Below, piece after piece: positions 21,134-27,952 of a stretch of DNA of 47,324 nt. The notes under the pieces were generated by a model, which was not told the DNA's origin, searched no databases, and saw nothing but the letters and a program-made list of their open reading frames with translations. The position numbers and the translations under genes were made by a program. This DNA is from Candidatus Nealsonbacteria bacterium (GTDB taxonomy: Bacteria > Patescibacteriota > Minisyncoccia > Minisyncoccales > RBG-13-36-15): positions 180,860 through 228,183 of the forward strand of contig DRFQ01000001.1 of NCBI GenBank assembly GCA_011050465.1, in the 5' to 3' direction. The number at the start of each line of letters is the position of its first letter. The stretch's first letter is position 1.

Positions 21134-21208
21134 GCGCGTGTAGCTCAACTGGTTAGAGCTCCGAGCTTATACCTCGGCGGTTTCCAGGTTCGAGTCCTGG
21201 CACGCGCA
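21134..21208 (+). tRNA. tRNA-Ile (anticodon TAT)
   Basis: GCGCGTG/CACGCGC acceptor, anticodon stem CCGAG/CTCGG, loop CTTATAC. The variable region is 6 nt. Confidence 0.8.
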
Positions 21209-21330
21209 TGTTTTAGTATGGGGTTCGAGCCAGAGCACTGAAGTATTTTAGTGCTTCGGTGTCCTGGTCCACCCACGCGCACAACGGAAATAAGAAGTTT
21301 CCTTGGTGTTTATGTTGAGCGCAATGAGGA

Positions 21331-22782: not shown

Positions 22783-22927
22783 CCCCCACACCATAACGAG
22801 CTTTGTGCTTCGCACAGTGAATTATAGTATTGGGGATGAATTCAACAGAATAAATTAAACAACAGCGAGTAAAACTTTTAGGATGATGTTATTTTATCTT
22901 AAAATATAAGCTCGTTTGGTGTGGGGG
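22783..22927. mobile_element. MITE-like element with 18-bp terminal inverted repeats (copy 2, 145 bp)
   Basis: CCCCCACACCATAACGAG ... CTCGTTTGGTGTGGGGG. The internal sequence is unrelated to copy 1. Confidence 0.6.
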
Positions 22928-23343: not shown

Positions 23344-23526
23344 TAAGGGCGTGCCCCGTTAGAAGTTGTGTGAAATTTGACTATTACTAAAGTTTTTTCG
23401 AAACTATTTTTCTATGGAAATTTCCTTAATTACCAGAACTTCTAACGGGGCGTGTAGCTCAACTGGTCTACCCGCCAAAATTTTGCGGAGCAAGACTTAG
23501 GCGGATTAAGAGCGCCCCGCCCTTTT

Positions 23527-23599: not shown

Positions 23600-23689
23600 T
23601 AAAAATAAAAGGGGCGGGAAGGTTTCGGGCCTGTCCCGTAGTCAACCGAAGGTTGTACTTCGGTGCTCTGATCCTGACACGTCCACCAG

Positions 23690-23808: not shown

Positions 23809-24066
23809 ATGGGCTGTTTTGTATATTGAATTCATTGCAAAGATGACTCTTTATATACAAAAATTACCTGGAGCTTAAAAAAACGAATTAATGAACACAA
23901 TTCAGAAAAAAAAGGCTTTACAAAGAATAAATTTCCAATAAGGTTGGTTTATTGGGAGAAATTTAAACCAAGAATAGAAGCAGCCCAGAGAGAAAAAGAA
24001 ATAAAAGAATGGCGGAGAGAAAAGAAAGAGAGACTAATCTTTCACTTCTTTCAAGGCAAATTCTAG
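23809..24066 (+). pseudogene. GIY-YIG (UPF0213-like) nuclease gene interrupted by an in-frame TGA at codon 7
   Basis: MGCFVY*IHCKDDSLYTKITWSLKKRINEHNSEKKGFTKNKFPIRLVYWEKFKPRIEAAQREKEIKEWRREKKERLI. TGA at 23827-23829. The YTG motif reads YTK. Confidence 0.65.
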
Positions 24067-24094: not shown

Positions 24095-24166
24095 GCGGGT
24101 GTCGTATAGTGGCCATTACACTGCCTTGCCAAGGCAGCGAGGTGGGTTCGACTCCCATCACCCGCT
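24095..24166 (+). tRNA. tRNA-Gly (anticodon GCC)
   Basis: GCGGGTG/CACCCGC acceptor, loop TTGCCAA, T-loop TTCGACT. Confidence 0.9.
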
Positions 24167-24357
24167 TATAAAGAAGGGGCGGGGGTTCTGTACCAATCCT
24201 GGGTTGTTGTATTGGAGTTACAACGGCTTGAGTCGATAGGCGGCTTCGCCTTACAGCCCCTAAAAATTCACAATACCTATCGGGATTGGTACGGGGTGAG
24301 CATTCCCATCACCCGCCCCAAAGACCAAAGGACTAACCACCAATCAAGCTAAAACCC

Positions 24358-24386
24358 TTGACAATCATTACAGGATAGGCTATTAT
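24358..24386 (+). promoter_or_regulatory. Promoter TTGACA-17-TATTAT
   Basis: Upstream of the 3D-domain gene. The leader contains a CCCCTTTAAGGGG hairpin. Confidence 0.55.
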
Positions 24387-24413: not shown

Positions 24414-24947
24414 ATGGATAAAAACTCAGAAAAACTTCCTATTTTAAGCAAAAAATTGATGGTAAATAGCCTGATTTTTCTAATAGTTATTTATTTATTA
24501 GGATTCTTTCCTTTATTGGCTAGTCAAAAAGACGAGGTTAACTTTAAAGCATCTTTAGAGGAAAATTTTGTTTTCTCTAAATCCACTATTATTCAAGGAA
24601 ATAGCCTTTTGCCGCCTGTAAATCCTCTTTTAGTTAGAGAAATTAAAGTGGCAAGGACAATAAAGGTTGTGGTTACAGCTTATTCAAGTTCTCCCTGGGA
24701 AACAGATGATACTCCTTATTTGACAGCTTCAGGATCTATGGTTAGAGATGGTATTGTGGCCACCAATATCTTGCCTTTCGGGACAAAAATTAGACTTTCT
24801 TCTCTTTATGGTGATAAAATTTTTGTTGTTGAAGATAGAATGAACCCTAGAAAAGGTTATCAGGTTGATATTTGGCATTCTTCTCATTGGGAGGCGAAAC
24901 AATTTGGCGTTAAGTTGGCTGAGATGGAGATAATCGAGGAAGGATAA
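24414..24947 (+). CDS. 3D-domain (MltA/RlpA-like) cell-wall protein
   Basis: TM anchor plus VVVTAYSSSPWETDDTPYLTASG....ATN..PFGTKI....VVEDRM....VDIW. Confidence 0.8.
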   Translation: MDKNSEKLPILSKKLMVNSLIFLIVIYLLGFFPLLASQKDEVNFKASLEENFVFSKSTIIQGNSLLPPVNPLLVREIKVARTIKVVVTAYSSSPWETDDTPYLTASGSMVRDGIVATNILPFGTKIRLSSLYGDKIFVVEDRMNPRKGYQVDIWHSSHWEAKQFGVKLAEMEIIEEG

Positions 24948-27807: not shown

Positions 27808-27866
27808 TGGCTTTACATAGTAGTAAAATATAACTTATTTTTTCAATTTGGACGGCGAGAGAAGGA

Positions 27867-27952
27867 CCAGAGCACTAAAAGTTTTTAGTGCCAAAACACT
27901 AAAATACTTTAGTGCTCGGCCGAGCACATAAGATAAATTTTATGTGCTCTGG
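27867..27952. repeat. Inverted-repeat-bounded cluster of three hairpins (CCAGAGCAC ... GTGCTCTGG)
   Basis: GCACTAAAA-g-TTTTTAGTGC, CACTAAA-atac-TTTAGTG, GAGCACATAA-gataaatt-TTATGTGCTC. Shares CCAGAGCACT with 21230. Confidence 0.6.

Follow-up and report, generated by a model that had tools for sequence, protein, structure and literature searches.

A decayed copy of a mobile hairpin family lies between a tRNA-Gly gene and a repeat of its 3' end in a Candidatus Nealsonbacteria genome

The miniature inverted-repeat transposable elements (MITEs) and palindromic intergenic repeats of bacteria include Correia/NEMIS in Neisseria, ERIC in the enterobacteria and RUP in Streptococcus pneumoniae. Here we describe a palindromic element, R1, behind the gene for tRNA-Gly(GCC) in a 47,324-nucleotide stretch of the genome of a Candidatus Nealsonbacteria bacterium (GenBank assembly GCA_011050465.1, contig DRFQ01000001.1, positions 180,860 to 228,183 of the forward strand). 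This whole stretch is called the window below, and unprefixed positions are counted from its first letter. The source genome, labelled G000 (772,214 bp in 10 contigs, rated 97.85% complete, 37% G+C), carries tmRNA and 46 tRNA genes. An earlier note, made from the letters of the window alone, had pointed to a hairpin at this place bracketed by a repeat of the tRNA 3' end, and had suggested that a recurrent process targets tRNA 3' ends in this organism.

R1 resembles the bacterial MITEs in being about 100-150 bp long and non-coding, in having terminal inverted repeats (TIRs) that fold into a long rod, in its short target-site duplications, and in having many copies dispersed between genes, with a patchy distribution and nested insertions. 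It differs from them in that no cognate transposase or full-length element was found, in the 22 nt of its apex, which are better conserved than its termini, in the apparently independent movement of mini-hairpins of about 27 nt that consist of termini only, and in the size of its host genome, 0.77 Mb. With REP and BIME sequences R1 shares the short, abundant, GC-rich palindromes in intergenic DNA and the presence of a RAYT-like gene in the genome; unlike them it has target-site duplications, and the Y1 genes examined are not flanked by its hairpins. A second group of described systems concerns the tRNA side of the locus. Tycheposons are described as integrated elements flanked by partial tRNAs, whose degenerate forms leave scattered partial tRNAs behind (bioRxiv 10.1101/2020.12.28.424599). 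With its intact tRNA, foreign DNA and displaced partial 3' end, the tRNA-Gly locus looks like the attL/attR arrangement of such elements and of genomic islands, and the same likeness holds for a tRNA-Gln repeat in G000 that surrounds a 2.5-kb accessory island. The tRNA-Gly locus is unlike these elements in that the segment is only 138 bp long, lacks an integrase or cargo, is bounded by a repeat of only 13 bp and was not seen in an excised form. R1 and the putative tRNA-Gly scar belong to known kinds of element and scar. The R1 family itself may be undescribed so far, since a limited literature search returned no paper that pairs Patescibacteria with miniature inverted repeats in its title or abstract.

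We consider it probable that the locus is a composite, in which a decayed, MITE-like R1 lies within the scar of an integration or duplication at the 3' end of tRNA-Gly. The coordinates of its parts are collected in Table 1. The tRNA 3' end does recur downstream, and the repeat is one base longer than had been noted: the two copies are 100% identical over 13 nt and lie 151 nt apart from start to start, all 13 nt are shared with tRNA-Gly, and the last shared base is the final acceptor base. The 138 nt between the two 13-mers consist of the hairpin element alone, 112 nt of which are R1. Both inverted repeats described earlier are present and 100% complementary, one of 10 nt (24190-24199 with 24283-24292) and one of 8 nt formed by the outer arms GGGGCGGG and CCCGCCCC. 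The 13-mers and the outer pair fall outside R1, the model match being bounded by 24185 and 24296, and GGGGCGGG occurs 25 times in G000, often at hairpin ends or close to tRNAs. The long imperfect hairpin also proved sound, as the + strand of 24167-24325 folds at -66 kcal/mol versus -47.3 +/- 3.8 for 200 shuffles (z -4.87, no shuffle equal), while the - strand reaches z -2.84. Only short open reading frames (ORFs; 46-76 aa), without family support, cross the R1 copy. Rfam 15 gave no match over 24167-24320 at gathering scores or at E values up to 10, and none at a paralogous copy on contig C9. No terminator-like site was seen between tRNA-Gly and the element, and the non-coding stretch behind the tRNA ends with a sigma-70-like promoter.

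Table 1. Features of the tRNA-Gly(GCC) locus and coordinates of two other repeat families (window positions unless a contig, C, is named).
Feature	Position	Strand	Basis or remark
tRNA-Gly(GCC), intact, CCA not encoded	24095-24166	+	ARAGORN; Rfam tRNA model, 57.8 bits
Direct repeat, copy 1 (3' strands of T stem and acceptor stem of the functional tRNA-Gly)	24153-24165	+	
Left spacer, 19 nt (discriminator base, A/T-rich run, G-rich run)	24166-24184	+	includes 5' outer arm GGGGCGGG (24176-24183)
R1 copy, decayed, about 112 nt, palindromic, MITE-like	24185-24296	+	R1 covariance model, 67.3 bits, E 3e-13
Stem P1 of the R1 copy	about 24186-24200 with 24282-24296		
R1 apex, near-invariant (GATAGGCGGCTTCGCC then TTA; two small adjacent hairpins)	24235-24253	+	
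Right spacer between R1 and displaced repeat, 7 nt	24297-24303	+	
Direct repeat, copy 2 (displaced 3'-end remnant)	24304-24316	+	repeat search
3' outer arm CCCGCCCC	24312-24319		end of repeat copy 2 plus 24317-24319
Sigma-70-like promoter (TTGACA, 17 nt, TATTAT; 11/12 matches), outside the element	24358-24386	+	serves ORF 24414-24947
GAGCAC family locus	21220-21282	+	
GAGCAC family locus	about 27860-27945	-	
GAGCAC family locus	C10 (L047, about 1447-1545)		
GAGCAC family locus	C9:292469-292554		
98-nt repeat at a contig end	C5:37550-37647		
98-nt repeat at a contig end	C8:10-107		
98-nt repeat at a contig end	C8:41819-41916		
98-nt repeat at a contig end	C9:26-123		

That the core of the hairpin is one copy of a dispersed family became clear when the interval behind the tRNA was compared with its own genome by BLAST, which found a second copy (C9:172847-172961) that is 85% identical over 62 nt. 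A covariance model built from 8 aligned copies scores the C9 copy at 75.1 bits, above the window copy, and finds a weak third match in G000 (E 0.87). The conserved core was found at 2-3 places per genome in five other genomes when 61 related genomes were searched, and the model has matches in 21 of the 151 genomes of an even sample of the order, each of which holds between 1 and about 7 distinct copies; it has no match in a same-genus genome (78% complete) or in two genomes of the same family. Exact copies of the 22-nt apex were found in 108 metagenome stretches, whereas viral contigs gave none. The common design consists of a CCCC start at the 5' end, a 15-bp outer stem, two shorter stems, the near-invariant apex and GGGG at the 3' end. 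The apex was invariant in all nine of the first copies and is largely so in 29. In these 29 copies both partners vary at 12 of the 15 outer-stem pairs, and over all 21 counted pairs 95.5% of the cells are standard pairs, a value that none of 500 shuffles reaches. Covariation of the outer stem alone would be no proof of an RNA, as TIRs bound by one transposase would covary likewise. In 6 of the 29 sequences a C-G pair of the first apical mini-hairpin is swapped for A-U, the loop of this mini-hairpin varies among GNRA-like tetraloops, and a U-G pair closes the outer stem at one conserved position in 26 of the 29.

The hairpin is not a product of the recurrent process at tRNA 3' ends that the earlier note suggested; it is a copy of a dispersed MITE-like element that is not specific to tRNAs. 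Of 30 R1 copies at genome loci, 4 have a tRNA within about 100 nt, and a tRNA lies within 150 nt of 5 of the 69 non-redundant metagenome copies versus 2.0 expected from tRNA density (p 0.047), and on these counts the idea that R1 is aimed at tRNAs was rejected. R1 has housekeeping genes as its neighbours, and an all-against-all BLAST of the adjoining ORFs revealed no recurrent partner protein; the few pairs that this comparison gave are themselves housekeeping (ribosomal protein S1, T2SSE ATPase, pilin-like proteins). Where both flanking ORFs run in the same direction, the strand with the apex is antisense to them 13 times and sense 4 times, according to crude ORF calls. With the paralogue and the multicopy family found, tmRNA, signal recognition particle RNA, 6S RNA, Y RNA, an intron-bearing tRNA and a split tRNA were dropped as candidates for the structure.

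Members of the family have moved. Direct repeats of at least 4 nt abut the termini in 18 of the 30 R1 copies, versus 8.9% of 868 control pairs with mismatched left and right flanks (binomial p 3.5e-12). The commonest target-site duplication is TCAA or its complement TTGA, and TAAA, TGAA, TTTA, CAAG, CCAA and CGAG also occur. In the metagenome loci R1 is found nested inside R1, and mini-hairpins of about 27 nt, consisting of termini only, are inserted with a 4-bp duplication of their own. At four metagenome loci (L138, L139, L189 and L201) R1 interrupts the TTGA of a TTGACA -35 box. Owing to the duplication, an intact TTGACA, a 17-nt spacer and TATAAT follow directly to the right of the element. 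Set against the usual description of a MITE, R1 is small and non-coding (model match of 112 nt) and has TIRs, which in the window copy comprise 10 perfect base pairs and 4 more that are only G-U or C-G. Its target-site duplications are evident at the level of the family and not at the window copy, and its dispersed copies number 2 in G000 and 69 in the non-redundant metagenome set. An autonomous partner with the same termini and a transposase was not found among the R1 loci examined.

R1 belongs to a larger set of hairpin repeats of similar build. With criteria of at most 300 nt in length and arms matching at 10 or more of 11 positions, G000 has 53 CCCC...GGGG hairpin loci, five of them in the window, versus 4 in the reversed genome and 0 in a shuffled one; they have several types of terminus and unrelated interiors. 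One sister element (23354-23450, 97 nt, a CCCCGTTAGAAG-type hairpin) is flanked by the 4-bp duplication CGTG and splits a tRNA 5' fragment on the + strand (23347-23470; acceptor strand plus D-loop, tRNA-Val/Ile-like). A contig of a related strain (run X10) skips 101 nt at this place, equal to the element plus one copy of the duplication (7 ambiguous letters), and thus has an empty site. Directly behind tRNA-Leu(GAG) lies a 145-nt element (22783-22927, + strand) with a TGAA/TGAA duplication and an A+T-rich interior unrelated to R1; its termini, CCCCCACACC...GGTGTGGGGG, are those of R1-type copies elsewhere, so different interiors occur with one set of termini. Four contig ends of G000 share a 98-nt hairpin repeat of the CCCCGC(C/T)CCTA type (Table 1), which means that these elements break the assembly.

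The window copy has no flanking duplication, and TTCT stands at its 5' terminus in place of the family's CCCC; these two features mark it as an old, decayed copy of a mobile family. In a strain from another study the whole arrangement lies on a single contig spanning 23300-24839, which has 18 other letters and 5 gaps. At 24187 this strain has a C, one step nearer the CCCC consensus, and the T-loop-like "GGTTC" of G000 is therefore most simply a decayed element end. When the locus was compared with relatives, as the earlier note had proposed, two same-family genomes were found to have a syntenic Leu-Val-Phe-Gly(GCC) cluster with neither the hairpin nor the 3'-end repeat, which suggests that the structure as a whole is young and lineage-specific; these genomes also differ in the sequence of tRNA-Gly and in the downstream gene. 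Contig joints at 23605/23689 and 23710/24094, together with two others, were left unused, as their short side covers 21-31 letters at 82% likeness and they could come from other organisms. An exact search with the 3' 25-mer of tRNA-Gly hit 46 unrelated genomes, mostly Clostridia, so this tRNA end is common and uninformative.

The displaced 3' end of tRNA-Gly has counterparts elsewhere in G000. For each of the 46 tRNAs, the 14 nt before the last base were compared with the 250 nt downstream, with other tRNAs masked. A cognate match of at least 11/14 was found for four of them (Gly-GCC 13, Ser-GCT 14, Ile-TAT 11, Ser-GGA 11), while 21 of 2070 non-cognate pairings reach this level, which gives an expectation of 0.47 (Poisson p 0.0014); no cognate upstream region exceeds 10/14, and at 13/14 or better there are just 4 non-cognate pairings. 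The excess of cognate 3'-end repeats downstream of tRNAs in G000 is therefore real but small. The match of tRNA-Ser(GCT) is part of an 18-mer repeat of its own 3' end, 91 nt downstream. A 17/18-nt copy of the 3' end of tRNA-Gln(TTG) lies 2.5 kb downstream on the same strand and bounds the accessory island mentioned above (C9:216210-218760), which encodes a DUF5343 protein, a DpnII/MboI-like endonuclease and a 268-aa protein of unknown kind. This is how DNA that has integrated at the 3' end of a tRNA gene classically looks. Taken together, the enrichment and the island support the view of the earlier note that some process has worked repeatedly at tRNA 3' ends in this genome.

Two further observations concern tRNA-Gln ends. 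Within the island, a 16-nt motif follows the tRNA and each gene block, in a cassette-like layout. At C9:49900-51700 two 147-nt direct repeats, 97% identical and composed of tRNA-3'-end-like pieces that include a 17-mer from the tRNA-Gln end, flank a single 352-aa gene that looks by eye like a polyprenyl synthase.

The same architecture had been claimed for the tRNA-Ile gene of the window. A partial repeat of its 3' end is indeed found downstream, where the 8-mer 21201-21208 recurs at 21274-21281 with pieces of the T arm (best ungapped match 11/14), but the details differ and the hairpin there belongs to another repeat family. This GAGCAC family has a T-loop-like GTTCGA(A/G)CC, one to three hairpins with GAGCAC/GTGCTC arms, CTGGTCC and a C-rich tail. 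It stands behind tRNA-Ile(TAT), Ser(CGA), Ser(TGA) and Thr(TGT) in G000 (Table 1), and parts of it were found in five others of the 61 genomes searched (G001, G003, G029, G033 and G047); in G003 it sits behind tRNA-Leu(TAG). The family could be an att arm, tRNA debris or an RNA.

The history that we propose would run as follows. R1 is a non-autonomous palindromic element of about 112 bp whose CCCC/GGGG TIRs form a 15-bp stem when single-stranded, which duplicates 4 bp of its target and favours TTGA/TCAA-like sites, and which belongs to a superfamily of hairpin repeats that fill the intergenic space of the 0.77-Mb genome. The 13-bp direct repeat would be the scar of a rearrangement at the 3' end of tRNA-Gly, most likely caused by a site-specific integration of the attL/attR type that restored the tRNA and displaced the original 3' end. 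The integrated DNA would later have been whittled down to almost nothing but the MITE, and the R1 copy in the window would by now be immobile.

A number of observations weigh against this history. The 8-bp outer stem GGGGCGGG/CCCGCCCC is explained by neither event and partly reuses the tRNA-derived CCCGC. The tRNA 5' fragment at about 23347-23470 means that the tRNA debris nearby is not all of the 3'-integration type. No empty site was seen for the 138-bp segment, as the sole close strain that bridges it shares the arrangement, and in the second strain (run X10) contigs end near 24166 and 24302 with none bridging. Between the 13-mers no integrase, cargo or arm-type sites are left. The search for an integrase or other recombinase elsewhere in G000 turned up no dedicated integrase; the only PF00589 genes are those of two Xer-like tyrosine recombinases on C9, neither of them beside the locus. 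Neither G000 nor any of 5 R1-rich genomes contains DDE_Tnp_1, the only transposase family searched for here apart from Y1_Tnp, and no long TIR-bounded candidate with matching flanks, as expected of an autonomous element, was seen among the R1 loci examined. Furthermore, the C-to-T changes at the 5' terminus of the window copy can still pair with the 3' GGGG as G-U, and among 480 outer-stem cells G-U outnumbers A-C by 38 to 7, mostly owing to one conserved position. The apex of R1, finally, is better conserved than its termini, an unusual property in a plain MITE and one that would fit a functional RNA or a single-stranded DNA motif.

This last point leads to the possibility, which we regard as quite unlikely, that the apex is a functional single-stranded module, either RNA or DNA, carried by a mobile hairpin. 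Such a module could be a signal for RAYT-like Y1 (HUH) proteins, which are multicopy in the order, or it could be a regulatory RNA planted beside promoters through insertion into, and rebuilding of, the TTGACA -35 box. G000 has a RAYT-like Y1_Tnp gene, with a score of 38 bits versus the NCBIfam cut-off of 80 for REP_Tyr_transpos. Proteins of this kind (about 240-260 aa) match in 78 of the 151 genomes, with up to 22, 18 and 15 matches in single genomes of 0.6-0.8 Mb (G094, G135 and G136 are examples), and they occur in 17 of 21 R1-positive versus 61 of 130 R1-negative genomes (Fisher p 0.004, uncorrected for kinship). No CCCC...GGGG hairpins flank the Y1 genes of G000 or those at 6 other loci, and the RAYT link was set aside as a hint from co-occurrence only.

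Three other explanations were weighed against the composite. The remnant could be what is left of a second, partial tRNA-Gly copy that arose by local duplication, took up the MITE in or close to its T loop and later wore away through deletions, without any site-specific integration. We think this unlikely. In its favour, the 97-nt sister element splits a tRNA 5' fragment within the same 2 kb, so fragments of tRNAs with another origin are present here and such elements do strike them, and T-arm-like pieces with hairpins inside them were seen by eye behind Ile-TAT, Ser-CGA, Ser-TGA and Thr-TGT and likewise behind Ala-GGC, Ile-GAT, Leu-TAG and Ser-GGA. The heptamer GGTTCGA was counted 6 times in the 250-nt regions behind tRNAs versus 0.48 expected, but the controls are raised as well (4 upstream, 3 antisense), since tRNAs cluster. 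The bases just left of the hairpin in G000 resemble a T stem followed by TTC; this TTC is better read as R1's own CCCC after C-to-T changes, given the consensus and the C at 24187 in the bridging strain. Moreover, only 13 nt are shared, they end at the last acceptor base, and no remnant of a D arm or anticodon arm is present.

If instead the hairpin of 24176-24319 were a functional structured RNA transcribed together with tRNA-Gly, it could serve in processing or stability of the 3' trailer or act as a small RNA, and its tRNA-like 3' strand would be there as a mimic or competitor of the acceptor stem. The stronger fold on the tRNA strand (z -4.87 vs -2.84), the lack of a terminator-like site before the element, the G-U-preserving changes at the 5' terminus, the near-invariant apex with its GNRA-like loop variants and one compensatory swap, and a similar G-rich block 10-11 nt behind tRNA-Val(TAC) all fit such an RNA. 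We nevertheless find it distinctly improbable, as the structure is absent at the syntenic tRNA-Gly of the same-family genomes, R1 is patchy (21/151), multicopy, self-nested and accompanied by target duplications, only 5 of 69 copies are near a tRNA, the apex strand is mostly antisense (13 to 4) to same-direction flanking ORFs by the crude calls, and Rfam offers no match at E up to 10. That the repeats and the hairpin merely coincide in a G+C-rich patch of an A+T-rich genome is hardly credible. G-rich and C-rich octamers are strongly over-represented in G000, as the count for GGGGCGGG shows, which makes the 8-bp outer pairing less surprising than uniform odds suggest, and coincidence may account for the outer stem alone. 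However, the rarity of 13/14 matches among the non-cognate pairings, the failure of any of the 200 shuffles to fold as well, and the homologues of the core in 21 genomes and 108 metagenome stretches speak against it, the last of these refuting it for the core hairpin.

Several other features were noted near the tRNAs of G000. Between tRNA-Phe and tRNA-Gly the + strand holds a small GIY-YIG nuclease ORF (23809-24066; PF01541, E 3.6e-11 for 23830-24063), which is interrupted by an in-frame TGA at 23827-23829 directly after its start, MGCFVY. In contigs of two related strains a T at 23828 turns this codon into TTA (Leu), and the gene is intact there; in G002 and G003 tRNA-Phe adjoins tRNA-Gly(GCC) without a GIY-YIG gene. 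A motif ACTTCGAC ... CTCAGTG(C/T)(A/G)A directly follows tRNA-Asp, tRNA-Trp and tRNA-Ser(GCT) (C9:5732-, C9:267894- and C10:23112-), and GCGGGGTGAA or ACGGGGTGAG stands behind tRNA-Arg, 7-17 nt downstream for the TCG and CCT anticodons and about 100 nt downstream for CCG. The tRNA-Ile of the window (21134-21208, + strand) has the anticodon TAT, and only two tRNAs with a CAT anticodon are found in the genome (C9:5305 and C9:5428). From these gene sequences, the organism may read AUA with a UAU anticodon and not with a lysidine-modified CAU tRNA.

On the composite reading, a structure that looks like a tRNA-linked RNA would be explained by two common processes at the level of DNA, and the conserved apex of R1 and its link to the -35 box would be the only features that could go beyond routine annotation. 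If the apex is a functional module after all, the copy at tRNA-Gly, whose stem has been kept by G-U-preserving changes, would be a still active RNA within the tRNA transcript. Very small and streamlined as it is, the genome holds mobile hairpin repeats by the dozen, with 53 loci in 0.77 Mb, and the tRNA genes of G000 are hot spots of rearrangement debris.

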